64,000 bases of DNA from an uncultured Bacteroidales bacterium (GCA_902788275.1 CADAJV010000005.1:40609-104608), one strand, 5' to 3'. Counted from the stretch's first letter, positions 1,150 through 63,682 are shown. Notes: generated from the sequence alone by a model not told the origin. Program-made: numbers and translations.

Positions 1150-1152
1150 GTA

Positions 1153-1257
1153 AGAATTGAAGAATGGAAGAATTGAAGAATTGAAGAATGGAAGAATGGA
1201 AAAGTTGAAAAGTTGAAAAATTGCAATTTCAATCCTTCCGTTCTTCAACTTTTTAAA
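1153..1257. repeat. GAATTGAA/GAATGGAA tandem array folding back on its own reverse complement (centre TTGCAA at 1221-1226)
   Basis: Direct reading: gaattgaagaatggaagaattgaagaattgaagaatggaa...ttgcaa...ttcaatccttccgttcttcaac. Confidence 0.85.
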
Positions 1258-1719: not shown

Positions 1720-3243
1720 ATGGACATCTATCAAGTAATTATTAGCAGCATCCTTGCTCTCACTGTCTTGCTGGGCATCTCGATGATGAGCCGCGTCAAG
1801 ACCGCCGTGGCTGGCAACTTCCTGTCGGCGGTAGCCCTCCTTACGGGAGTCGGCGTTACCCTGCTGTTCAATGAAGTTATCTCCGCCTGGACCGTATGGG
1901 TGGCCCTCATCATCGGAGCCCTTATTGGCAGCGTCATGGCCCGGCGTGTCAAGATGATACAGATGCCGCAGACCGTGGCACTCTTCAATGGCCTGGGCGG
2001 CGGGGCCTCCGCACTGGTGGGCCTGCTCTCCGTTATGGGCATAGGTTTCAGCGGCACACAGCTGGCCGCCATCGAGGCCGGCGGCTACTGGCCTTTTGTG
2101 CGGCTCACCGGGTTGCTGGCCATTGCCGTGGGCGTCATCACGCTGGTAGGCTCGCTGGTGGCTGCCGGCAAGCTTCACCGCCTGTTGCCGCAGCGCCCCA
2201 TCGTGTGGCCCTTCCATTCCGTGCTTACGCTAGTCTTCCTGTTGCTTACCCTGGCAGGCATAGTCGTTGGGACCCTCAATTATCCATTTGCTCCTCTTGC
2301 CACCGCCTTGGCTTCGGCCCTCTTCGGCCTCTACTTCTCCGTCAGGGTGGGTGGGGCCGACATGCCCATCACCATCTCGCTGCTCAACTCGCTCTCAGGA
2401 GTGGCCGGCTCCATAGCCGGCATGGCCATAGGTGATGTCTTCCTGGTGGCCGTGGGCGGCATAGTGGGAGCCTCCGGCCTGCTGCTCACGCAGATAATGA
2501 GTCGCGCCATGAACCGCAGCCTCCTCAGCATACTGGCAGGAGGAAAAGAGCAGAAGGCCAATAAACATATTGTCGATTCAGAAAAATACATACAACGCAT
2601 TATGGACTTGGAAAAGAAAATAAAAGAACTCGAGGAGATGGTCAAGAACCTTGAGGGGCGTGTGCAGACCCTCACGCTGCAGGTGGATAAGGCAGAGGAA
2701 AAGAATGCGCCAACCACCGCCCCCCAATCTCCAGCCAAGACAGCAGCCTCCGTACTCTCTGAGGCTAAGGATGTCATCATAGTGCCTGGCTACGGCATGG
2801 CCTTGGCCCAGGCGCAGCACCAGGTGCGCCAGCTGGCCGACAAGCTGGAAAGCCGCGGTGCCCGCGTGCGCTACGCCATCCATCCCGTGGCAGGCCGTAT
2901 GCCTGGCCACATGAACGTGCTGCTGGCCGAGGCCGATGTGGACTATGAGCAGCTCTACGAGATGGAGGCCATCAACGATGACTTCAAGAGCTGCGATGCT
3001 GCCGTGGTCATCGGTGCCAACGACGTGCTCAACCCCGCCGCCCGCAATGCCGAGGGCACGCCCATCTACGGCATGCCCGTGCTCAGCGTTGACGAAGCCC
3101 CCGAGGTGATAGTGTGCAACTACGACCTCAAGCCCGGCTATGCCGGAGTGGAGAATCCCCTCTACAAGCGCCAGCAGGGCGTTTACCTGGAGCTCGGCGA
3201 TGCCAAGGAGACCCTTATGCGCCTGATAGGCGAGATAGGGTAG
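1720..3243 (+). CDS. pntB: NAD(P) transhydrogenase beta subunit with extended coiled-coil linker
   Basis: Multi-TM dII domain followed by dIII (VIIVPGYGMALAQAQH, HPVAGRMPGHMNVLLAEA). About 45 extra residues lie in the dII-dIII linker. Confidence 0.9.
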   Translation: MDIYQVIISSILALTVLLGISMMSRVKTAVAGNFLSAVALLTGVGVTLLFNEVISAWTVWVALIIGALIGSVMARRVKMIQMPQTVALFNGLGGGASALVGLLSVMGIGFSGTQLAAIEAGGYWPFVRLTGLLAIAVGVITLVGSLVAAGKLHRLLPQRPIVWPFHSVLTLVFLLLTLAGIVVGTLNYPFAPLATALASALFGLYFSVRVGGADMPITISLLNSLSGVAGSIAGMAIGDVFLVAVGGIVGASGLLLTQIMSRAMNRSLLSILAGGKEQKANKHIVDSEKYIQRIMDLEKKIKELEEMVKNLEGRVQTLTLQVDKAEEKNAPTTAPQSPAKTAASVLSEAKDVIIVPGYGMALAQAQHQVRQLADKLESRGARVRYAIHPVAGRMPGHMNVLLAEADVDYEQLYEMEAINDDFKSCDAAVVIGANDVLNPAARNAEGTPIYGMPVLSVDEAPEVIVCNYDLKPGYAGVENPLYKRQQGVYLELGDAKETLMRLIGEIG

Positions 3244-3357: not shown

Positions 3358-3505
3358 AGAGCCTTGAAAAAAAATTTAACTCCGTGGAAAAATAATCTAA
3401 CTCCGTGGAAAAAAAATCTAAGAGCCTTGAGCCGTCATTTTCAAGGCTCTTAGATTTCATTTCGAGGCTCTTAGTTTGCGTTTCGAGGCTCTTAGTTTGC
3501 GTTTC
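3358..3505 (+). repeat. 'TCTAAGAGCC word' element, copy 1
   Basis: 2x CTAACTCCGTGGAAAAA, a central palindrome TCTAAGAGCCTTGAGCCGTCATTTTCAAGGCTCTTAGA, and 2x TTTCGAGGCTCTTAGTTTGCG (3460-3480, 3481-3501). About 85% identical by eye to the reverse complement of 54192-54313. Confidence 0.85.
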
Positions 3506-3510
3506 CTTGG

Positions 3511-3563
3511 GGTTAGTTTAGAAGTTTAGAAGTTAAGAAGTTAAGCCGTTAGTCAAGACTATG
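3511..3563. repeat. GAAGTTWA array plus junction motif GCCGTTAGTCAAGACTATG
   Basis: ggttagtttagaagtttagaagttaagaagttaagccgttagtcaagactatg. Confidence 0.85.
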
Positions 3564-3640
3564 TCGCTTCGCTCTCACCTCCGCTTTTCGTGCTCCGCTT
3601 CGCGACAGCACTGCTTCGGTTCGCGATACCTTCGGCATTC
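3562..3640 (+). repeat. GCTTCGCTCTC...CCTTCGGCATT core element, copy A (candidate structured RNA)
   Basis: Shares its 5' end TGYCGCTTCGCTCTC and 3' end TCGCGATRCCTKCGGCATT with 14954-15141 and 54881-54962. Contains CTTCGG and GCTTCGC motifs. Confidence 0.75.
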
Positions 3641-3644
3641 GTCC

Positions 3645-3765
3645 TCTATCTCCTTCTATCTCCTTCTATCTCCCTCTATCTCCTTCTATCTCCTTCTATC
3701 TCCTTCTATCTCCTTCTATCTCCTTTTATCTCCTTTTATCTCCTTAACTTCTTAACTACTAAACT
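3645..3765. repeat. About 10x TCTATCTCCT decamer array (3645-3745), then CTTAACTTCTTAACTACTAAAC, which is the inverse of the 3511-3546 array
   Basis: Counted directly. The outer arms 3511-3546 and 3744-3765 are reverse complements and enclose the core element. Confidence 0.9.
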
Positions 3766-3952: not shown

Positions 3953-4834
3953 ATGAGTTTGAAAATCGTTGTCTTAGCCAAGCAGGTGCCCGACACGCGC
4001 AATGTGGGCCCCGACGCTATGACCCCTGAGGGCACTGTCAACCGTGCTGCCCTGCCCGCTGTGTTCAATCCCGAGGACCTCAACGCCCTTGAGCAGGCCC
4101 TGAGGCTGAAGGAGCAGTTCCCCGGCTCCACCATCAGTGTGCTGACTATGGGTCTGCCCAAGTCGGCCGAGGTTATCCGCGAGGCTCTCTACAGGGGTGC
4201 CGACCAGGGCTATGTGGTTACGGACCGTCCGCTGGGTGGTGCCGACACGCTGGCTACGAGTTACACTCTTTCGCAGGCCATAAAGAAGATTGGCGATTAT
4301 GACATTATCCTCGGTGGCCGTCAGGCTATCGACGGTGATACTGCTCAGGTGGGTCCGCAGATTGCCGAGAAGCTGGGCTTGACGCAGGTGACTTACGCTG
4401 AGGAGATTCTCAGCCTGGATCCCGAGAAGAAAAAGATTGTGGTGAAGCGTCATATTGACGGTGGCGTGGAGACTGTTGAGGCTCCGCTGCCGCTGGTGGT
4501 AACGGTCAACGGTTCTGCTGCCCCCTGCCGTCCGCGCAATGCCAAGCGTGTGATGAAGTATAAGAACGCCACTGCCGCTGCTGAGCGTACTCCTGAGCAG
4601 GCTGAGGCGCTGGCACCGCTATTGGAGAAGAAGCCTTACCTTGACATCACCCAGTGGGGTGCTGCCGATATTGATGCCGACCCGGCCCAGATAGGCAAGA
4701 CGGGCTCGCCTACCAATGTAAAGGCTGTGCAGAACATTGTGTTCAAGGCGAAGGAGAGCCGCACCATGACTGGCAGCGACGAGGAGATAGACTCCCTGAT
4801 TCAGGAATTGTTGAACGAAAAGATTATTGGCTAA
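3953..4834 (+). CDS. etfB: Electron transfer flavoprotein beta subunit
   Basis: MSLKIVVLAKQVPDT N-terminus and GGRQAIDGDTAQVGP motif. Immediately followed by etfA. Confidence 0.9.
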   Translation: MSLKIVVLAKQVPDTRNVGPDAMTPEGTVNRAALPAVFNPEDLNALEQALRLKEQFPGSTISVLTMGLPKSAEVIREALYRGADQGYVVTDRPLGGADTLATSYTLSQAIKKIGDYDIILGGRQAIDGDTAQVGPQIAEKLGLTQVTYAEEILSLDPEKKKIVVKRHIDGGVETVEAPLPLVVTVNGSAAPCRPRNAKRVMKYKNATAAAERTPEQAEALAPLLEKKPYLDITQWGAADIDADPAQIGKTGSPTNVKAVQNIVFKAKESRTMTGSDEEIDSLIQELLNEKIIG

Positions 4835-13667: not shown

Positions 13668-13867
13668 CTCTATCTCCTTCTATCTCCTTTTATCTCCTTT
13701 TAACTCCCTCTATAACCTATAACCAATAACCTATAACCAATAACCTATAACCTTTCATCTATCTCCTTTTAACTCCCTCTATAACCTATAACCAATAACC
13801 TATAACCTTTCATCTATTTCCATAATTATCTATAATTTCATTTCTCAAATTTCAAGTTTCAAATTTA
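13668..13867. repeat. Composite array block: TCTATCTCCT, two tandem copies of a 55-69 bp module (13691-13759, 13760-13814), then AAATTTC-type array
   Basis: The module TATCTCCTTTTAACTCCCTCTATAACCTATAACCAATAACCTATAACCTTTCATC is read twice in tandem. Related copies at 49821-49857, 51989-52032, 52060-52089 and 55636-55672 (reverse complement). Confidence 0.9.
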
Positions 13868-13873
13868 TTTGTG

Positions 13874-14882: not shown

Positions 14883-14947
14883 ATTGATAGTTGATAGTTG
14901 ATAATTGATAGTTGATATTGATAGTTAGCGTTTCCTCCGGACTTGGC
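14883..14947. repeat. TTGATAG array followed by half-site TCCGGACTTGGC
   Basis: attgatagttgatagttgataattgatagttgatattgatagtta...tccggacttggc. Confidence 0.9.
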
Positions 14948-14953
14948 TAAATT

Positions 14954-15141
14954 TGCCGCTTCGCTCTCAAAGGCTCCTGCAAGTTTCGCTCCGGCTTCGC
15001 CGACGGCAAAAGAGCCGCTCTCTCAAAGAGAGCATTGATCAAGAGCAATTTTTCGCTCAAAGAGAACATTGCTCGAAGAGCAACTTCTCGCTCAAAGAGA
15101 ACATTGCTCGAAGAGCAACTTCTCGCGATGCCTGCGGCATT
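14954..15141 (+). repeat. GCTTCGCTCTC...GCCTGCGGCATT core element, copy B, expanded by about 3 copies of a 35-bp internal tandem repeat
   Basis: The ends match copies A and C. TCGCTCAAAGAGAACATTGCTCGAAGAGCAACTTC occurs at 15053-15087 and 15088-15122, with a diverged copy at 15019-15052. Confidence 0.8.
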
Positions 15142-15172
15142 CAAATTTCAAATTTCAAATTTCAAATTTCAA
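15142..15172. repeat. CAAATTT heptamer array abutting the ATG at 15173
   Basis: tcaaatttcaaatttcaaatttcaaatttcaa ATG. Confidence 0.9.
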
Positions 15173-17764
15173 ATGAAATCAGTTGTCCGCCTTTTTTTGA
15201 TTGCTGTTTTTGCGCTGTTGTGCCTCGGCATGCAGGCTGCTGCCGACAGGACTTTCAACAGTGCCAGGTTTGGAGCGCTGCCGCAGTTGCAGGTCAACGG
15301 TTCGCAGGGCGTGTCAGCCCCCTTTGCCGGGGTAAGCAACGGTCATGTGCTTGTGGCCGGTGGCTGCAATTTTCCCGGTGTGCCGGCTGCCGAAGGCGGC
15401 AGGAAGGTGTTCTATAGTGATGTTTATCTGCTTCAGGGCGACAGGGGATGGCAAAAGGTAGGCTCTCTGGCCGACAGCGTAGCCTACGGCGTAAGCGTGA
15501 GTGTGCCGGAGGGCGTGGTGATGATTGGCGGCACTAATGGCCGACAGAGCCTGTCGGCGGTTACCCTGCTCAGCTATGACGGCAGCAGGGTGGTGACGGC
15601 TGCGCTGCCCAAGCTGCCTGTGGCTCTCGACAATATGGCCGGTGCCTACGGCGGAGGCTACATCTATGTGGCTGGCGGCCAGACAGACGGTGTGGCTGCT
15701 AACAGGGCTTACCGCCTCAGGTATCCTGATGGCGGGCAGTGGGAGCGGCTGCCCGATTTTCCGGGCAAGCCCAGGCTGCAGCCGGTGGCTACGGTGCAGA
15801 ACGGCAGCGAGCGAGCACTCTTCTACCTGCTTGGCGGATACAGCGCTGACGGCACTGACGACGGCGGGGTTTGCTATGACCCGCTCTATAATACATGGCG
15901 CACCACGGCCCCTATCGTGGCTGGCGGTAAGCCGGTGGCTCTGGTGGGTGCCAATGCTGTGAATAGCGGCACGTCGTTTGTTGTCTGCATAGGCGGTGTT
16001 GACAAGGGCATCTTCGACCAGGCTCTTAAGGGCGCTGAGGCTGACTATATGACTCATGAGCCGTCGTGGTATAAGTTCCGTACTACCTTATTAATATATA
16101 ATACCATCACCGATACCTGGAGCGAGATGGAGGGTGACACTGCCCTGGCCCGCGCCGGCAGTGCCGTGGTGGACTATGTCAGCAACGGCAAGCACCGCTG
16201 GCTGGTGATTGACGGCGAGAGTAAGCCGGGTGTGCGCTCTGCTGAGGCTACCGAGGTGAGCGTAGATTATGATGCCAGCTTCGGGTGGCTCAACTGGGTG
16301 GTGCTCATTGTCTATCTGCTGGCTATGCTCGGACTGGGTTTCTACTTTATGCACCGCGAGAAGAACTCCGACGATTTCTTCACCGGCGGTGGCCGCATAC
16401 CGTGGTGGGCTGCGGGCATGAGCATCTTTGCCACCATGCTAAGCGCTATCACCTATATGTCCATCCCCGCCAAGGCTTACGCTACCGACTGGAAGTATTA
16501 TCCTATGCAGATTTTTATCCTCATAGTGGCCTTCCCCGTGATTACCTACTTCCTGCCCTTCTTCCGCAGACTTAAGATCAGCACGGCTTACGCCTACCTG
16601 GAGCAGCGTTTCTGCTACGGGGTGAGGGCTATGGCCAGTGCACTGTTTATCATCTTCATGGTAGCCCGTATGGCTCTGGTGCTCTTTCTGCCGTCGTTGG
16701 CTATGTCGGCAGTTACTGGCATAGACATCTTTGTGTGCATCATCCTTATGTCAGTCATCACCATAGCCTACTGCACCATGGGCGGTATGGAGGCTGTGGT
16801 GTGGGGCGACGTGGTGCAGGGCTTCATATTGATAGGCGGTGCATTGTTGGCAGCGGTCTTCCTTGTTACCCAGACGGAGGGCGGCTTCTCCGGATTCTGG
16901 GATATCGGTATGGCCAACGATAAGTTTGTGCTCTTTGATTTCAGCTTCGACTTCCGCTCAGCCACATTCTGGGTAATCGTGCTGGGCGGACTGGCCAACA
17001 ACCTCATCTCCTACACCTCCGACCAGACGGTAATACAGCGCTATATGACCACCAGCAGCGAGAAGGCTGCCTCCAAGAGTATTATCACAAACGGATTTCT
17101 GAGCATCTTCGTGAGCATCATCTTCTACACCATCGGCACGGGTCTCTACACCTTCTTCAAGACCCACCCGGAGTCTGTGGACATCACCATGCAGAAGACA
17201 GATGCCATCTTCCCCTTCTTCATGATGAGCCAGTTGCCCGCCGGATTGGCCGGACTGCTCATTGCAGCTCTCTTTGCCGCCACCATGAGCACTATCTCAA
17301 GCAATATCAACTCCATATCCACAGCCTTCACGATGGATATGTACAAGAAGATGCGCCCCAATATCAGCGACAAGAAAACCCTCAGCGTAGCCCGCTGGAC
17401 TGGTATCGTGTCAGGCCTTATAGGCACATTGATAGCCATCGTAATGGCGGTAGTGGATATCCAGTCGCTGCTCGACTACTTCAACACTATCCTCGGCCTG
17501 CTGACCGGAGCCATAGGCGGTCTCTTTATCATGGGTATCTTCTTCAAGCGCATCAATGCCACCACGTCGCTCATTGGCTTTATTGCCGGCACACTGGCGG
17601 TATTCTATATGAACTACTTTACCGATGCCAACTTCCTGCTGTTCGGATTTATCAGCATGTTTGTGTCGGTAGTGGTTGCACTGGTGCTCTCCCTCTTCTG
17701 GCATAACAAGAAAGACATCAACGGACTTACCTGGAAGACACTCGAAAAGGAAGCCGATGAATAA
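15173..17764 (+). CDS. Fusion protein: Kelch-repeat sialic acid mutarotase-like domain (NanM/YjhT-like) + sodium:solute symporter
   Basis: Start set at MKSVVRLFLIAVFALL (signal peptide). The 46 upstream codons of the tracked ORF are translated repeat DNA. The N-terminal ~370 aa carry Kelch-like GG/W repeats; the C-terminal ~490 aa form a multi-TM SSS fold. Confidence 0.75.
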   Translation: MKSVVRLFLIAVFALLCLGMQAAADRTFNSARFGALPQLQVNGSQGVSAPFAGVSNGHVLVAGGCNFPGVPAAEGGRKVFYSDVYLLQGDRGWQKVGSLADSVAYGVSVSVPEGVVMIGGTNGRQSLSAVTLLSYDGSRVVTAALPKLPVALDNMAGAYGGGYIYVAGGQTDGVAANRAYRLRYPDGGQWERLPDFPGKPRLQPVATVQNGSERALFYLLGGYSADGTDDGGVCYDPLYNTWRTTAPIVAGGKPVALVGANAVNSGTSFVVCIGGVDKGIFDQALKGAEADYMTHEPSWYKFRTTLLIYNTITDTWSEMEGDTALARAGSAVVDYVSNGKHRWLVIDGESKPGVRSAEATEVSVDYDASFGWLNWVVLIVYLLAMLGLGFYFMHREKNSDDFFTGGGRIPWWAAGMSIFATMLSAITYMSIPAKAYATDWKYYPMQIFILIVAFPVITYFLPFFRRLKISTAYAYLEQRFCYGVRAMASALFIIFMVARMALVLFLPSLAMSAVTGIDIFVCIILMSVITIAYCTMGGMEAVVWGDVVQGFILIGGALLAAVFLVTQTEGGFSGFWDIGMANDKFVLFDFSFDFRSATFWVIVLGGLANNLISYTSDQTVIQRYMTTSSEKAASKSIITNGFLSIFVSIIFYTIGTGLYTFFKTHPESVDITMQKTDAIFPFFMMSQLPAGLAGLLIAALFAATMSTISSNINSISTAFTMDMYKKMRPNISDKKTLSVARWTGIVSGLIGTLIAIVMAVVDIQSLLDYFNTILGLLTGAIGGLFIMGIFFKRINATTSLIGFIAGTLAVFYMNYFTDANFLLFGFISMFVSVVVALVLSLFWHNKKDINGLTWKTLEKEADE

Positions 17765-23097: not shown

Positions 23098-24807
<1,710 letters not shown>

Positions 24808-24811
24808 ATGA

Positions 24812-24878
24812 TAAGGAGTAAAGGAGTAAGGAGTAAAGGAGTAAAGGAGTAAGGGAGTAAGGGAGTAAAGGAGTTAAG
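24812..24878. repeat. GGAGTAAR array (about 8 units) immediately after the groEL stop
   Basis: taaggagtaaaggagtaaggagtaaaggagtaaaggagtaagggagtaagggagtaaaggagttaag. Confidence 0.9.
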
Positions 24879-24931
24879 TCGATACTCCGCGACTCCGCAA
24901 CTTTGCAACAATAAAAAACTCTGAGTCGAGT

Positions 24932-24971
24932 CCCCTCTATCCCCCCTCACGGGGAGGCAGAGGGGGCTTTT
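24932..24971 (+). terminator. CCCCTCT...AGAGGGGGC hairpin + TTTT (partial member of the triple-hairpin family)
   Basis: cccctctatcccccctcacggggaggcagagggggctttt. Plausible groEL terminator. Confidence 0.45.
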
Positions 24972-25145
24972 GTTCTCTTTTCTCTTTTCTCTGTTATCTG
25001 ACTCAGACAGGAACCCCTGCGGAGCCGGGTTAGGGACGGGGCTTGGAGTCAGAGGGGCTTCCCTTCCAAAAGAGTGCCGGCAAGAAAAATTAAACAGTGT
25101 AGATTAATTTTGGCTGTAAGACTGCGGAGTTATGAAAATAATCCG

Positions 25146-27258: not shown

Positions 27259-27455
27259 GGCCGTAATCTGATCGCGTGCAAGTTTGTGCTGAGCCCGTCA
27301 AAGCAAAAACTAATCGCGTCGAGCCGTAATCTAATTGCGCTGAAATGAAATCTAATCGCGCTGAAATGAAATCTAATCGCGCCGAAACTGACCATTTCTG
27401 CGCGATTAAAATTTTTGTCTGCGGATTTATTTGCTTTTTTTGTGTGATTAAAATA
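27259..27455. repeat. 'TAATCGCG word' element, copy 1
   Basis: At least 5 forward TAATCGCG-like words, including a 21-bp tandem CTGAAATGAAATCTAATCGCG x2 (27340-27381), followed by the inverted GCGCGATTAAAAT and GTGTGATTAAAAT. Related block at 62593-62745. Confidence 0.8.
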
Positions 27456-27794: not shown

Positions 27795-29312
27795 ATGAGA
27801 AAAAATCTATTTTGCCTGAAGATTTCAGCCGTTCTTTTTGTTCTCGCTCTTATGTCACAGTGGGGTAGGGCTGAGATTGTTACTTCCATCGACTCTAAGG
27901 CAGCCCTGTTAGCTTTTGCCGCCTCTGTCAATGGCGGTGAAGATTATGGGAATGTCAATGTCTATATGGCTGCCGATGTTGATTTGAATAATGAGTCGTG
28001 GACTCCCATCGGCACCCCCTCCCATCCTTTCAAGGGCCATTTTGAGGGGTGGGGGCATAAGGTCAGCAATCTGACTGTCAGTGGTGGTGTCACCGATTAT
28101 GTGGGGTTGTTCGGCTATGTTGACGGCGGCAGCATCCGCGATGTGGCGGTAGTGTCAGGCGCAGTCAGCGGCGGCAGTTACATAGGCGGTATCTGCGGCT
28201 ATGTTGCCAACAGCGGCGAGATCAGCAGCTGCTACAGCGAGGCCAGCGTCAGCGGCTCTCAGTATGTGGGCGGCATCTGCGGCTATTTTGCCGGCTATGA
28301 GATTAGCGACTGCTATAGCACCGGCGATGTTAAGGCCAGCGTCAGCGGCTCTCAGTATATGGGCGGTCTTGTAGGTCAGGTTTATCTGGGTGATGTAAGG
28401 TTCTGCTATTTTTCCGGTAGTATAGATTACCGTCCCAGTGTTCAATACTACGGCTCCTTGGTGGGTGATGTGAAGAATTCCAACGCTTCTACGATAGATG
28501 TTGAGAACTGTGCGTACAAGACTGACGACGCAAACCCTGACTATACCCCGCTTGCCATTGGGTGCAATGAAGCCGAGTCCCCCACCGATGGCGACAACAA
28601 GCAATTTGACGCCACCCAGATGCAGAAGGCAGAGAGCTGGGCAGGGATACTGAACACCGTGACATACAACGCGGCATGGAAGATTGCCGACGGCAGCTAT
28701 CCGCAGCTAAGCTCTTTCCTTAAGAACGAGCCTATTACCTTTAACTTTACCAGCGAGAAGAAATGGCTGACCATCGTGCCCAATGGCAACTATGCCGTGC
28801 CTGCTGGCATGAAGGCGTATATCGTGACCGGCGTTGATGTGGCAAGCAGCACAGTTTCGCTGCGCAGTGTGAGCACTCTCAACGAGGGACGTGCGGCGCT
28901 GGTGTGGAGCGACGGCGGTGAAAGCATCACGGTCAGCAGCACCCAGGGTGCTCTGTCTGACTACAGCGCCGACCAGTGGCTGAAAGGGTCCCACGTGAGC
29001 CCCGTCGTGTTGAAAGGCGACAAGACTGAGTATGTGCTGAGCGGCGGAATTTTCCAGAGGGCAAAATCCGGCACCCTCGCCCGCGGCAAGGCCTACCTGA
29101 AGGTGGGCGCCAGCGTCAGCGGCAGCAGCAGCCTCAAGGTAACCATCGAGGATGACGACCCCACAGGTGTAAGTCAAGAATCAATGGTCAATGGTCAATG
29201 GTCAATGGTCAATGGTCAATCAATTTACGACCTCAGCGGACGCAAAGTCAGTGGCCAGCCGGCAAAGGGCCAGGTATATATCAAGAACGGAAAGAAAATC
29301 ATAATACGATGA
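27795..29312 (+). CDS. GLUG-motif repeat protein with T9SS-type C-terminal sorting tail
   Basis: Signal peptide. Reiterated GSQYVGGICGY / YMGGLVGQ GLUG-like repeats. C-terminus IYDLSGRKVSGQPAKGQVYIKNGKKIIIR. Confidence 0.75.
   Translation: MRKNLFCLKISAVLFVLALMSQWGRAEIVTSIDSKAALLAFAASVNGGEDYGNVNVYMAADVDLNNESWTPIGTPSHPFKGHFEGWGHKVSNLTVSGGVTDYVGLFGYVDGGSIRDVAVVSGAVSGGSYIGGICGYVANSGEISSCYSEASVSGSQYVGGICGYFAGYEISDCYSTGDVKASVSGSQYMGGLVGQVYLGDVRFCYFSGSIDYRPSVQYYGSLVGDVKNSNASTIDVENCAYKTDDANPDYTPLAIGCNEAESPTDGDNKQFDATQMQKAESWAGILNTVTYNAAWKIADGSYPQLSSFLKNEPITFNFTSEKKWLTIVPNGNYAVPAGMKAYIVTGVDVASSTVSLRSVSTLNEGRAALVWSDGGESITVSSTQGALSDYSADQWLKGSHVSPVVLKGDKTEYVLSGGIFQRAKSGTLARGKAYLKVGASVSGSSSLKVTIEDDDPTGVSQESMVNGQWSMVNGQSIYDLSGRKVSGQPAKGQVYIKNGKKIIIR
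29181..29220 (+). repeat. 5.7x TCAATGG heptamer array in frame inside the CDS (encodes SMVNGQWSMVNGQ)
   Basis: Codon phase checked: 29181 is a codon start. The same unit forms intergenic arrays at 27157-27230 and 54972-54990 (reverse complement). Confidence 0.9.
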
Positions 29313-40935: not shown

Positions 40936-40937
40936 TA

Positions 40938-41060
40938 GAATTGAAGAATTGAAGAATTGAAAAACTAAAGAATTAAAAATTGAAGAATTAAAGAGTTGAA
41001 AAATTGAAGAATTTAAGGATTTAAGAATTGAAGTTCATTTTTCCATTCTTCAACTTTCCT
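40938..41060. repeat. GAATTGAA/GAATTAAA array with short inverted 3' arm (TTCCATTCTTCAAC)
   Basis: agaattgaagaattgaagaattgaaaaactaaagaattaaaaattgaagaattaaagagttgaaaaattgaagaatttaagg... Confidence 0.9.
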
Positions 41061-42501: not shown

Positions 42502-42592
42502 TATTTGAAATTTGAAATTTGAAATTTGAAATTTAGCCAAGTCCGGACTTGGGGAGTATAATACCTCTAACCTATAACCTATAACCTATAAC
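42502..42592. repeat. TTTGAAA array, perfect 16-bp palindrome CCAAGTCCGGACTTGG (42536-42551), CTATAACC array
   Basis: Direct reading. Confidence 0.9.
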
Positions 42593-49569: not shown

Positions 49570-49849
49570 GTTTACAGTTTATAGTTTACAGTTTACGGTT
49601 TGAAAAGTTCGAAAGAAGAAAGACTAACGGCTTAACTTCTTAACTACTTAACTTCTTAACTACTAAAACGTTTACGGTTTACCGGACTTGGCTTCTATAA
49701 CCAATAACCAATAACCAGTTGATAATTGAAAGTTGATAATTGAGAATTACTTTCCGGACTTGGCTTCTATAACCTATAACCAATAACCTATAACCTTTTT
49801 ATTTTGTCAAGGTATAATATCTATAACCTATAACCAATAACCTATAACC
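49570..49849. repeat. 280-bp concatenation of six array types with two CCGGACTTGGC half-sites
   Basis: GTTTACR (49570-49601), junction + TTAACTWC (49631-49669), CCGGACTTGGC (49682-49692, 49754-49764), ATAACCAA (49695-49716), GTTGATAAT (49718-49748), CTATAACC (49767-49795, 49821-49849). Confidence 0.9.
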
Positions 49850-49864
49850 TTTCATTCATCACCC

Positions 49865-51869: not shown

Positions 51870-52104
51870 GTTTACGGTTTACAGATTAGTAGTTAAGAAG
51901 TTAAGAAGTTAAGAAGTTAAGAAGTTAAGCCGTTACTCTGGAAGTTAAGAAGTTAGGTAGTTAAGTAGTTAAGCCGTTACTCTTGACTATCTCCCTCTAT
52001 AACCTATAACCAATAACCTATAACCTTTCATCTGTCCTCTATCTCCCTTTATCTCCCTCTATCTCCTTTTAACTCCCTCTATAACCTTTCCTCTATCTCC
52101 CTCT
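51870..52104. repeat. Concatenated arrays: GTTTACR, 2 blocks GTTAAGAA + GCCGTTACTC junctions, CTATAACC module, TCTATCTCCY array
   Basis: Direct reading. Shares modules with 13668-13867 and 55555-55725. Confidence 0.9.
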
Positions 52105-54081: not shown

Positions 54082-54158
54082 GAGCCCCCCTCACCCCCTA
54101 AAGGGGAGGCCCCTGGCGCCAGAGTTCTCTCCCCTTTAGGGGGAGTTAGAGGGGGCTC
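54082..54158. repeat. Triple-hairpin CTGGCGCCAG element, copy 2
   Basis: gagcccccctcaccccctaaaggggaggcccctggcgccagagttctctcccctttagggggagttagagggggctc. Confidence 0.8.
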
Positions 54159-54191
54159 CTTCAATTTTTCAACTTTTCCATTCTTCAATTA

Positions 54192-54313
54192 TTCTGAGAG
54201 CCTTGGCGGCAATTCTAAGAGCCTTGAAACCAAATCTAAGAGCCTTGAAAATGACAGCTCGAGGCTCTTAGATTTTTTTTCCACGGAGTTAGTTTATTTT
54301 TCCACGGAGTTAG
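54192..54313 (-). repeat. 'TCTAAGAGCC word' element, copy 2 (inverted relative to copy 1)
   Basis: Its reverse complement aligns along the whole length with 3372-3478. Confidence 0.85.
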
Positions 54314-54368
54314 ACCACAGCTAAAAGTGTGGTCTTTTTGTATGTTTTTTTGCAGGCTGCCTTTTTTC

Positions 54369-55547
54369 CTACAGCAAATCGATGAGGCGGTCGATGTCTT
54401 CTGAGCGGGTGGCCCACGAGGTGGCGAAGCGTATGGTTACGCGGTCGCCATGTGGTGGTTCCCACTGGTCGTAGGTGAGGTGCTCCTTGAGCCGGGCGGC
54501 CTGCTCAAGGCTTACCTCTACGAACTGCTGGTTGGTGGGGGAGTGGTAGGGCAGCCGGTAGCCCTTGTCTATAAGGGCCTGCCTCAGGCGCATGGCTTCC
54601 ACTATGGCGTGGCGGCAGCCTTGGTAATAGGGGGTGGCGGTCAGGGTGTCGCCTTCCAACAATGTGTCGAACTGGAGGGCTGTAGTCCATCCCTTGGCGA
54701 TCAGGGCACCGTGACGCTTGATATGGGTGAAGAAGCGTGAGTCGGCCGCGGGACGCGGTATGATGGCTGCCTCGCCAAACATTGTGCCGCACTTGGTGCC
54801 TCCGATATAGAAGGCGTCACACAGGCGAGCAATGTCGGGCAGGGTGGGCAATTGAGAATTGATAGTTGATAGTTGATAATTGCCGCTTCGCTCTCGCGGC
54901 TCTTTGAAGTCGGCACCGGCTCCGCCGACAGCCGACGAGCCGCTCGCGATGCCTTCGGCATTGAGAATTGCCCATTGACCATTGACTGACACGCCTGAGG
55001 CTCCGAGGCCGTAGCCGAGGCGTGCGCCGTCGAGGTAGAGGGGTAGGTGGTGCTTGCGGCATACGGCGCTGATGGCCTCCATCTCGGAGAGGGTATAGAG
55101 GGTGCCGTACTCAGTGGGATGGGTGATATACACCATGCCGGGTGGCACGATGTGGGGCCAGTTGGGGTCGGTGTAGTAGGTGGTGACGTAGTTGTCCACC
55201 TGCTCAGCTGTTATCTTGCCTTGGGTGGAGGGCAGGGTGAGCACTTTGTGGCCGGTAAACTCTATGGCTCCCGACTCATGGATGGCTACGTGAGCGCTGT
55301 CGGCACTCAGCACTCCCTCAAAGCTGCGCAGGAGGTAGTTGACCATGACCATGTTGGTCTGTGTGCCGCCGCAGAGAAACTGTACCTCGGCATCGGGGCA
55401 CTGGCAGAGGCGGCGCACTTTCTCGCGTGCCGACTGGCTGATGGGGTCGGTGCCGTAGCCTGGCATCTGGCAATCCTGCATCTGCTGCATACGTTGCAGT
55501 ATGAGCGGATGGCAAATATTCATGTAGTCGCTGTCAAAATGTAGCAT
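54369..55547 (-). CDS. Threonine aldolase / beta-eliminating lyase family PLP enzyme carrying a ~48-aa in-frame repeat-element insertion
   Basis: DSDYMNICHP, GGTQTNM, LYLDGARLGYGL and FYIGGTKCG (PLP Lys) motifs. The residues GVSVNGQWAILNAEG...SGNYQLSTINSQ are encoded by repeat DNA. Confidence 0.8.
   Translation of the reverse strand: MLHFDSDYMNICHPLILQRMQQMQDCQMPGYGTDPISQSAREKVRRLCQCPDAEVQFLCGGTQTNMVMVNYLLRSFEGVLSADSAHVAIHESGAIEFTGHKVLTLPSTQGKITAEQVDNYVTTYYTDPNWPHIVPPGMVYITHPTEYGTLYTLSEMEAISAVCRKHHLPLYLDGARLGYGLGASGVSVNGQWAILNAEGIASGSSAVGGAGADFKEPRERSGNYQLSTINSQLPTLPDIARLCDAFYIGGTKCGTMFGEAAIIPRPAADSRFFTHIKRHGALIAKGWTTALQFDTLLEGDTLTATPYYQGCRHAIVEAMRLRQALIDKGYRLPYHSPTNQQFVEVSLEQAARLKEHLTYDQWEPPHGDRVTIRFATSWATRSEDIDRLIDLL
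54849..54990 (+). repeat. Core element copy C with TTGATAG and CATTGAC flanking arrays, located inside the aldolase CDS (antisense to it)
   Basis: 54881-54962 matches copies A and B at both ends. ATTGAGAATTG occurs as a direct repeat at 54851-54861 and 54960-54970. Confidence 0.85.
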
Positions 55548-55554
55548 GGTAAAA

Positions 55555-55725
55555 GGTTATTGGTTGTAAATGAAAGGTTATAGGTTATAGGTTATTGGTT
55601 ATAGATATTTTAGTCGGGTGAGTCTTCATATGAATGGTTATAGGTTATTGGTTATAGGTTATAGAGGGAGATAGTCATGAGTAACGGCTTAACTACTTAA
55701 CTACTTAACTTCTTAACTTCCAGAG
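55555..55725. repeat. GGTTATWG arrays (two blocks), AGAGGGAGATAGTCATGAGTAACGGC junction, TTAACTWC array
   Basis: Direct reading. It is the reverse complement of modules at 13691-13814 and 51989-52032. Confidence 0.9.
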
Positions 55726-55741
55726 CTCAAATCTCATTGGT

Positions 55742-57658: not shown

Positions 57659-57925
57659 ATAGTTGATAGTTGATAGTTGATAATTGATAATTGTTTACGG
57701 TTTACGGATTTGAAATTGAACATTTAGGAGATAGAGGGAGATAGAGGGAGATAGAAGGAGATAGAAGGAGATAGAGGACGTTAGTCTTGACTATTTAGAA
57801 GTTAACTTCTTAACTTCTTAACTACTAAAACGTTTACGGTTTACCGGACTTGGCTAAATCTCAAACCTCAAACTATTCATTTAATTTTTTCAATTTTTTA
57901 ATTTTTTAATTTTTCAATTTTTTGC
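57659..57925. repeat. Concatenated arrays: GTTGATAR, GTTTACG, GGAGATAGAR x5, junction, TTAACTWC, GTTTACG + CCGGACTTGGC, CTCAAAC, TTTTTYAAT
   Basis: Direct reading. The last array (57877-57925) extends into the 3' end of the aminotransferase CDS (QKIEKLKN*). Confidence 0.9.
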
Positions 57926-62592: not shown

Positions 62593-62745
62593 AGAGAGAT
62601 TTACGGGAAGCCAAAAATAATCGCGAGAAGCCGAAATTTAATCGCGCAGGGACAGACCCTCCCTTCGATTATTTTTTGCCTCCTCGCAATAATGTCACGG
62701 CTCCTCGAAATATTGCGTTGGTTTCTTGCAATTATTATCCGTCTC
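62593..62745. repeat. 'TAATCGCG word' element, copy 2 (looser)
   Basis: AAAAATAATCGCGAGAAGCCGAAATTTAATCGCGCAGG, then TCGATTATTTTTT, CGCAATAATG and TTGCAATTATTAT inverted words. Confidence 0.6.
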
Positions 62746-63547: not shown

Positions 63548-63682
63548 TCATGAGTCGAGAGTCAAGGGTCGTGAGTGTTAAACGGTTATTGTTTAACGAT
63601 TATTGGTCATTGGTTATCGGTTAACGGTTAACGGTTATGGGTTATAGAATTTCTCTAACCTCTAACCTATAACTTCTAACCT
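63548..63682. repeat. GTCRWGAGT short array, GGTTAWCG/GGTTATTG array, CTCTAACC array
   Basis: Direct reading. Lies between a candidate -7 box (63706-63713) and the DUF2461 start, so it is probably leader RNA. Confidence 0.85.

Follow-up and report, generated by a model that had tools for sequence, protein, structure and literature searches.

The threonine aldolase gene analysed here, from an uncultured Bacteroidales bacterium, contains an in-frame insert that is very probably a passenger copy of an interspersed repeat, carried by an otherwise intact enzyme gene. The insertion itself, the membership of the inserted DNA in a repeat family, the covariation of its hairpin, the series of alleles of different length, the purifying selection on the gene and the recurrence of the element in other genes are all directly supported by the evidence given below. 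Positions refer to the window, i.e. the whole stretch of 64,000 nucleotides that was analysed, and the features are collected in Table 1.

Table 1. Features of the window, alleles at the aldolase site and copies of the element inside other genes.
Feature	Position or locus	Strand	Evidence or remark
Host gene, low-specificity threonine aldolase family (PLP fold type I)	54369..55547	-	392 aa including the insert; Pfam, PDB, Foldseek
Whole insert, 144 nt / 48 codons	54847..54990	+ (the element's own; antisense to the gene)	length relative to empty alleles
Left heptamer array, GGCAATT GAGAATT GATAGTT GATAGTT GATAATT	54847..54881	+	sequence; TRF period 7
Core, 81-nt GC-rich imperfect palindrome, ends GCCGCTTCGCTCTC ... 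TCGCGATGCCTTCGGCATT	54882..54962	+	covariance model 107 bits, E 1.6e-27
Right heptamer array, GAGAATT GCCCATT GACCATT GAC TGAC (about four heptamers)	54963..54990	+	sequence; TRF period 7
Intergenic core copy, between + ORFs 1720-3243 and 3953-4834	3561..3639	+	covariance model 58 bits, E 8.5e-14
Long intergenic core variant, upstream of a signal-peptide ORF	14953..15141	+	both ends match; covariance model 26 bits
Array-only case, 5.7 copies of TCAATGG, read as SMVNGQWSMVNGQ	29181..29220	+	TRF, 100% matching units
Aldolase allele, +0 nt	L010, L013		empty
Aldolase allele, +21 nt	L009 / P0005		in frame
Aldolase allele, +45 nt	L007, L008 / P0004		in frame; two samples
Aldolase allele, +49 nt (7 x 7)	L045 / P0127		frameshifted; gene split into two ORFs
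Aldolase allele, +87 nt	L006 / P0002		in frame; most of the core deleted
Aldolase allele, +144 nt	window, L001-L004 / P0001		in frame
Aldolase allele, +144 nt	L005 / P0003		in frame; other arrangement
Aldolase allele, +144 nt	L011, L012 / P0008		in frame; two samples
Aldolase allele, +165 nt	P0121		in frame; known from protein only
Aldolase allele, +186 nt	L047, L048 / P0123		in frame; two samples; 42 nt nested at the hairpin tip
Aldolase allele, truncated	L046 / P0043		gene ends directly after the core
carA	L027		copy between the CPSase and GATase domains; in frame, antisense
Glycerophosphodiesterase (GDPD)	L036		linker before the C-terminal tail IYDLQGRKI..., which resembles a secretion sorting domain; in frame, antisense
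Alpha-2-macroglobulin (A2M), 1864 aa	L037		before MG10; in frame, antisense
HemN-like radical SAM enzyme	L038		near the C-terminus; in frame, antisense
Secreted phosphoesterase	L015		directly after the signal peptide; in frame, antisense
aroA	L041		two tandem cores, then frame lost (real or assembly error)

The host ORF has no internal stop, and in Pfam it matched the family PF01212 (Beta_elim_lyase) with E 4.7e-20 and 72.5 bits, against a cut-off of 27; this match covers residues 30-186 only and breaks off at the insert. The closest solved structure was PDB 1svv, a threonine aldolase of Leishmania (E 5.9e-61). Its alignment falls into two pieces, residues 4-182 and 235-392, with the insert skipped, which indicates that about 50 residues have no counterpart. 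The invariant columns of a 78-sequence alignment are all kept in the window protein, including H90, D173, R176 and K252. The AlphaFold2 model obtained with this alignment had a mean pLDDT of 86.9 and a pTM of 0.85, with pLDDT values above 90 in the enzyme body, and Foldseek matched it to threonine aldolases (1svv with a probability of 1.00 and a target-normalised TM-score of 0.92-0.93). The sole stretch with pLDDT below 50 comprises residues 187-227, within the insert. The preliminary description of this DNA had suggested that a structural model be used to see whether the insert occupies a surface loop; in the model it forms a disordered excursion from a confident fold, between helices 177-181 and 236-242. 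Unrelated length variation is also found at this loop in the protein alignment with more distant orthologues, indicating that the insertion site is permissive; the insert would thus probably be tolerated at a putative surface loop.

The aldolase gene with the insert is under purifying selection. Outside the insert, the dN/dS values (Nei-Gojobori) were 0.056-0.185 between insert-bearing alleles, in the same range as the values of 0.06-0.11 obtained between alleles with no insert or with a short array only. The identical 392-aa protein is encoded on contigs of at least four independent rumen metagenome assemblies, which excludes an assembly artefact. The sample sets behind the contigs of this locus include STEW19, SHIW14 and LIUQ22.

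The size of the insert was established by comparing the DNA of ten alleles over the segment from DGARLGY to FYIGGTK. This segment comprises 96 nt in L010 and L013, which are empty, and 240 nt in the window; hence, the insert measures exactly 144 nt. Bounds of 54849-54990 had been proposed earlier, with about 48 extra residues; the insert and its approximate number of residues are real, but its left end lies at position 54847. The antisense orientation, the absence of stop codons and the preserved frame, also claimed before, were all confirmed. The expectation that orthologues without the repeat would lack the extra residues was borne out by the protein alignment, in which P0007, P0009, P0010 and P0012 read GAS-DITLAD, without the insert. 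Outside the insert P0007 is 95% identical to the window protein, and the other three are 81-83% identical. The inserted residues are missing from all the more distant orthologues too, as judged by protein search and alignment. The reading frame suggests that the insert is translated as part of the aldolase product; ILNAEGIASGSSAVGGAGADFK is an example of a peptide of this predicted insert-bearing product, at the insert junctions. No Pfam domain was found in residues 183-234 of the window protein. In Rfam, no family matched the whole window at the gathering threshold or the region 54780-55060 at E <= 1, and a blastn search of the insert against plasmids gave no match. On the mRNA strand, the insert folds as a strong hairpin with an energy of -53.9 kcal/mol and a z-score of only -1.78.

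The inserted DNA belongs to an interspersed repeat, as had been proposed, since its core has intergenic copies in the window and is identical to cores of another genome (see below). The 12-mer at the 5' end of the core occurs four times in the window at up to one mismatch, versus 0.49 expected, and the 18-mer at the 3' end three times at up to three mismatches, versus 0.06 expected. Both ends recur at 3565/3622 and 14957/15124, far above the expectation from shuffled sequences. A covariance model built from related copies found exactly three places in the window (54880-54962, 3561-3639 and 14953-15036). The unit of array, core and array described earlier was upheld, with heptamers on both sides of a core that begins at 54882 (previously placed at 54881). 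Both intergenic copies are oriented in the same way as their flanking genes, and the long variant holds about three copies of a 35-nt internal tandem repeat (15018-15126, TRF).

A pattern scan with both core ends, which covered one genome per species, returned 31 loci. Twenty-seven of them, with at least 30 copies, belong to one and the same rumen MAG, "uncultured Bacteroidales bacterium RUG13781" (CADAZW01); a Bacteroidaceae MAG from yak rumen contributes one, and three look like chance matches. The RUG13781 genome shares synteny with the window, with nucleotide identities of 88-91%, indicating that it represents a related species. The core in the window aldolase is 100% identical to both cores of the RUG13781 locus L041, which argues for recent spread. 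The ends of the core are invariant (TTGCCGCTTCGCTCTC and TCGCGATGCCTTCGGCATT), with TTGCCGCTTCGC and CGGCATT present in all 28 aligned copies, and the variable interiors pair as an extended hairpin. The RNAalifold consensus contains 21 pairs, 11 of them with compensatory double changes, as seen e.g. in the stems GCGGCTC/GAGCCGC, GCAGCTC/GAGCTGC and AGACTCT/AGAGTCT. The terminal pairing of the core comprises only 5 bp (TGCCG/CGGCA), plus TCGC/GCGA. A tblastn search for a Y1 transposase, a weak test with approximate queries (E. coli RAYT and IS200 TnpA), found none in 340 kb, a small part of the genomes, the best E value being 0.16.

The heptamers on the two sides of a core are related to each other. 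In half of the copies (16 of 32) they are identical or differ at a single position, compared with 8% of cross-copy pairs (permutation p < 1e-4). TT is the ending of the left unit in 26 of these copies, and ATT is that of every core, indicating that the core fills one slot of the heptamer array. The unit types are few (CCTAATT, CAAATTT, GACCATT/GATAGTT and GAGGTTT) and partly track the core subtype. The units of the left array of the window also flank the cores of L022 and L035, and GACCATT units flank those of L036, L038 and L041. The empty aldolase site has neither an array nor such a heptamer; at this site, the arrays either came with the core or grew later. They may have originated by a 7-bp target duplication, by insertion of the core into existing arrays, by joint mobility of array and core or by growth after insertion. 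As a general explanation, a 7-bp target duplication is favoured by the match of the flanks, but these run on as arrays and belong to few types, and the empty site is devoid of the heptamer. The 11-bp direct repeat ATTGAGAATTG, which had been reported to flank the element, is indeed present at 54851-54861 and 54960-54970, but it does not bracket the element, since its first copy falls within the left array and its second directly adjoins the core. It corresponds to an array unit, GAGAATT plus adjoining bases, and it switches side in the allele L005, so that it was discarded as a target duplication.

The most informative comparison among the alleles is that of the window with L005, which differ at 3% of the aligned coding nucleotide positions. 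Read in the direction of the gene, the core of the window allele is preceded by 27 nt and followed by 35 nt of array; the corresponding figures for L005 are 20 and 42 nt. One heptamer is thus on the opposite side of the core with the total length unchanged, as though the core had shifted by exactly one unit. As a result, the core is read one frame apart in the two alleles, as AILNAEGIASGSSAVGGAGADFKEPRERSG (NAEGIASGSS...) in the window and as AMPKASRAAHRLSAEPVPTSKSRESEAAI (MPKASRAAHR...) in L005. The same core DNA being read in different frames in sister alleles indicates that the insert peptide is not selected. From these sequences, selection on the insert is evidently limited to its length modulo three and to the absence of stops.

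The in-frame alleles came from a protein search, which favours intact ORFs, and their count is biased accordingly. The +49 and truncated alleles indicate that the arrays also yield loss-of-function variants; the former, L045, diverges by 1.9% of nucleotides from the window allele. A neighbour-joining tree of the gene places L010, which is empty, together with the +21 and +45 alleles, so that a single insertion followed by simple decay would need recombination or a poorly resolved tree. The alleles that contain only an array may be remnants or precursors, and the polarity may be either way. In L046 unrelated DNA follows the core, owing either to chimeric assembly or to rearrangement at the repeat.

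The suggestion that other genes be scanned for the element was fruitful, and in-frame antisense copies were found in the carA, GDPD, A2M, HemN-like and phosphoesterase genes of RUG13781. Of the 30 copies in that genome, seven are inside real genes, all of them antisense. Sense units such as TTGATAG, CATTGAC and GAGGTTT hold TGA or TAG in some phase, and their reverse complements are stop-free. An array of 7-nt units is read in all three phases, and hence any sense unit holding a stop halts translation; only antisense copies survive in genes because the sense-strand arrays hold TGA or TAG. The TCAATGG array of the window sits just before the C-terminal tail of the ORF 27795-29312, a tail that resembles a type IX secretion sorting domain. 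Several other candidates were discarded as coding or in-gene cases: the array at 15140-15174 is upstream of the real signal-peptide start, the arrays at 24804-25000 follow the groEL stop in an antisense-looking ORF, L025 (SppA) has a likely start codon downstream of the core, and the ORF of L035 looks like antisense noise.

In the explanation that we favour, a rumen Bacteroidales lineage harbours a non-autonomous interspersed repeat of which the segment would be one copy; the repeat is formed by an 81-nt imperfect-palindrome core with invariant termini that lies in register within short 7-nt arrays. The aldolase gene would have acquired the segment once the P0009 lineage had diverged, at the loop that separates D173, the PLP-binding Asp, from K252, the Schiff-base Lys. 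The gene would be read straight through the element, adding a 48-residue unstructured loop to an intact enzyme. The arrays would then vary in 7-nt steps, through slippage or a shift of the core by one unit, and selection would retain those variants that are stop-free and have a total length that is a multiple of three. Selection acting on length and stops only would leave sister alleles with wholly different insert peptides and a conserved enzyme.

One important question is whether the gene is a decaying pseudogene in which the open frame through the insert is a matter of luck. Chance alone goes some way, given that the GC-rich core is open in five of its six frames, the antisense arrays are stop-free and about one third of antisense insertions would be in frame and stop-free; L045 and L046 are disrupted, and the two-core aroA of RUG13781 loses its frame. 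Nevertheless, the dN/dS values between insert-bearing alleles, the conservation of every invariant residue, the seven length variants in frame and the finding of the same allele in at least four samples make this reading very unlikely. A frameshift or pseudogene at this place had been named beforehand as evidence that would count against the insertion being tolerated: the window allele is intact, although the two disrupted alleles do exist. Those alleles also bear on the idea that the locus is phase-variable, i.e. a contingency locus in which the element was co-opted and 7-nt slippage toggles the aldolase. Array copy number differs between nearly identical alleles, and L045 is out of frame by seven times seven nucleotides at little divergence. 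We consider such switching very unlikely, because the arrays are short (2-5 units) and imperfect and slip poorly, the host is a housekeeping-type enzyme, apparently in an aromatic amino-acid operon, and the element is also found in carA or A2M, where there is no obvious reason for switching. Most alleles are in frame as well, in a count that favours intact ORFs.

The strong hairpin of the mRNA strand might suggest that the mature enzyme is devoid of the insert, through splicing of an intron, excision of an intein or translational bypass. Removal is extremely improbable, since the fold is barely exceptional by its z-score, 48 residues are too few for an intein, and a length that is a multiple of three across alleles would have no reason; neither an intein nor a self-splicing intron was recognised by Pfam in residues 183-234 or by Rfam at E <= 1. 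It is also highly improbable that the extra residues form an adaptive loop, with selection favouring their sequence as a new linker or interaction surface. The insert does persist in several strains, with larger versions of +165 and +186 nt; however, sister alleles turn the same DNA into unrelated peptides by reading it in different frames, most or all of the insert is missing from others (+21, +45 and +87 nt), and the model assigns pLDDT values below 50 to this part.

How the element spreads is a more speculative matter. The core and its arrays might together constitute an undescribed composite mobile DNA of rumen Bacteroidales that moves, or is copied, in register with the 7-nt units, a proposal that we regard as doubtful. 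The core would then act like an oversized unit of the array, always with ATT at its end and preceded by a unit with terminal TT. If it were true, the proposal would point to a dedicated, phase-aware enzyme, e.g. a hairpin-recognising single-strand transposase cutting after ATT, and aldolase, carA, aroA and A2M would have been colonised without a frameshifted intermediate. The cyanobacterial STRR repeats are heptanucleotide arrays too, and small dispersed repeats nested in them were reportedly noted by Elhai et al. in 2008.

The preliminary description drew a parallel with the Rickettsia palindromic elements (RPE; Ogata et al. 2000; summaries in PMC10969869 and PMC3733652), of about 150 bp. As an analogy this is apt, and no known phenomenon comes closer. 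Both are multi-copy, hairpin-forming, non-coding repeats found between genes and in frame within unrelated housekeeping genes, at permissive loops or linkers of host proteins that apparently remain functional. Unlike the RPE, which reside in an intracellular alphaproteobacterium, the present element belongs to rumen Bacteroidales, has a core of 81 nt versus about 150 bp, and is embedded in register in heptamer arrays. It also lacks a conserved encoded peptide, the same DNA being read in at least two frames, and this variation of the reading frame between alleles argues against a conserved peptide of the RPE type. By these comparisons the element is probably best described as an RPE analogue and not as a member of the RPE family.

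Other short repeats share some of these traits. REP and BIME sequences (GTAG or CGTC tags, RAYT transposases; PMC3733652) are likewise short palindromes with one conserved end that form mosaics with other small modules and lie mostly downstream of or between genes, occasionally in ORFs. The core described here has 81 nt instead of 20-40, and the GTAG or CGTC tag that marks a REP was absent from the core ends in 28 aligned copies. MITEs have terminal inverted repeats of 15-30 bp (PMC3733652), in contrast to the 5-bp terminal pairing of this element. Heptanucleotide arrays are known as TAACTGA repeats in Beggiatoaceae, Cyanobacteria and a few Bacteroidetes (PMC4679880). As in the present case, 7-nt tandem arrays are abundant there in intergenic DNA, often directly upstream of start codons, and stop codons on one strand restrict their placement inside genes. 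Here, however, many units occur (GATAGTT, GACCATT, CCTAATT, CAAATTT, GAGGTTT and others), coupled to a structured core and found jointly with it within genes for conserved enzymes. Another small repeat of composite nature in Bacteroidota is BrickBuilt, a minisatellite-containing MITE of Porphyromonas gingivalis that was reported to be strictly intergenic (cited in PMC10969869). It likewise joins tandem repeats to unique parts that are conserved; its tandem repeats are internal, whereas in the element studied here the arrays flank the core and copies are also found in frame in genes.

The preliminary description had cited no precedent for Bacteroidota. No description of the element in Bacteroidales was found, and the family is undescribed in the literature searched, the coverage of which was incomplete. 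Palindromic repeats inside ORFs are not new as such, since in-ORF REPs have been reported in several bacteria besides Rickettsia (PMC3733652; review PMC10969869). The present case differs in the rumen Bacteroidales lineage, the composite architecture, the lack of a conserved peptide and a population series with frame compensation.

In-frame palindromic repeats are best documented in Rickettsia, where they led to the question of how selfish DNA is tolerated by proteins or can benefit them. The same phenomenon is now found in a free-living gut anaerobe of a different phylum, and with a natural series of alleles, from empty to +186 nt and including the same DNA in two frames, of which Rickettsia offered no equivalent. 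This provides a system for asking how much unstructured insertion a PLP enzyme tolerates near its active-site lysine, whether selection sees only frame and stops, and how arrays and cores move together. There is a practical side as well: such inserts split Pfam matches and make gene callers truncate MAG genes. L045 was called as two ORFs, and P0003 and P0008 were called from an internal Met, although the true ORF start of both is MLHFDS, as in the window.

Sequence comparison indicates that the threonine aldolase has been colonised by repeats repeatedly within this clade. The more distant orthologue P0025 (locus L049, 3316-3438) carries a different in-frame insert, GC-rich and 123 nt long, in another loop than that of the window; this insert folds strongly (-55 kcal/mol) and has near-identical GGGTGGGAGCCT repeats at its ends. 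Low-complexity inserts were found in other orthologues of alignment A1, either in the loop that holds the insert of the window gene or ahead of the C-terminal domain. The orthologues listed with inserts in this alignment, beside P0025, were P0019 and P0032-P0040.

In the window, the prephenate dehydrogenase-like gene and the aldolase gene are separated by 194 nt (55548-55741) made up of heptamer and octamer arrays; at the orthologous loci L013 and L049, which are more distant, these two genes overlap by 14 nt. Judged from the sequences, this spacer, located within an apparent aromatic amino-acid operon, seems to have been enlarged by the arrays. Upstream of the aldolase, L005 (1090-1500), an allele with 144 additional nt in another arrangement, has intergenic DNA wholly different from that of the window (55548-55741), while the coding sequences differ at only ~3% of aligned positions. 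This L005 region contains a core of the 3561-3639 type in reverse orientation, together with arrays unlike those of the window.

The whole window was searched for tandem repeats with TRF (minimum score 30), and 114 rows, part of them overlapping, were obtained. Most corresponded to arrays with units of 7-10 nt and highly diverse unit sequences (examples are collected in the table). Among those checked, many were located between genes, and several lay immediately upstream of start codons, as at the aldolase (55548-55720).

Repeat features of the window and of other loci
Feature	Sequence	Position	Strand	Description
TRF array region	window	1152-1223		
TRF array region	window	3645-3745		
TRF array region	window	13669-13870		
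TRF array region	window	40937-41033		
TRF array region	window	49570-49850		
TRF array region	window	51891-52104		
TRF array region	window	55575-55718		
TRF array region	window	57659-57923		
TRF array region	window	63583-63682		
Inverted repeat	window	54094-54143		perfect, 15 nt; arms CCCCCTAAAGGGGAG / CTCCCCTTTAGGGGG, 20 nt between; downstream of aldolase gene
TCCGGACTTGGCTAA module	window	14936-14950		
TCCGGACTTGGCTAA module	window	42533-42547		
TCCGGACTTGGCTAA module	window	57843-57857		
TCCGGACTTGGCTAA module	window	42087		
TCCGGACTTGGCTAA module	window	49753		
TCCGGACTTGGCTAA module	L021, L025, L039			
GLUG-motif protein gene	window	27795-29312	+	505 aa; heptamer array at 29181-29220

Between its conserved ends, the long core variant at 14953-15141 contains a 35-nt tandem repeat, CTCGCTCAAAGAGAACATTGCTCGAAGAGCAACTT, in ~3 copies. 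Two identical tandem cores, each read in a different frame, are present in the aroA (EPSP synthase) gene of the related rumen genome RUG13781 (L041, 5123-6319), and the frame is lost downstream of them. Either this gene of an essential pathway is truly a pseudogene, or the repeat was misassembled from short reads. On one metagenome contig (L046, 1630-1900) the aldolase gene ends straight after the core, which is followed by an opposite-oriented fragment of another core and then by unrelated DNA, a junction produced either by recombination between cores or by chimeric assembly.

Other repeat modules were also identified. A distinct set of 21-nt-period repeats occurs at 3366-3505 and 54191-54314, and also at 27306-27387 and 62607-62646; its modules TCTAAGAGCCTTGAAACCAAA and TTAGATTTTTTTTCCACGGAG were found again, in opposite orientation, at 3366-3505. 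The L001 locus is 100% identical to the window except that it is longer by ~40 nt at position 54312 of the window, a length difference that falls within the 54191-54314 repeat region. Downstream of the aldolase, the inverted repeat has the appearance of a further palindromic element, and a broadly similar C/G-rich palindrome, CTCCCCTCAAGGGAGGG, adjoins a core in L043. The conserved 15-nt module TCCGGACTTGGCTAA has five occurrences in the window with up to two mismatches, versus 0.12 expected. Since this module often adjoins cores or arrays, the repeat regions have a mosaic, BIME-like organisation.

In the GLUG-motif protein gene, where the core is absent, 5.7 perfect copies of the TCAATGG heptamer are present in frame and are translated as SMVNGQWSMVNGQ. 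This array directly precedes a C-terminal tail (SIYDLSGRKV...) that resembles a type IX secretion sorting domain, and it shares its TCAATGG unit with the aldolase insert.
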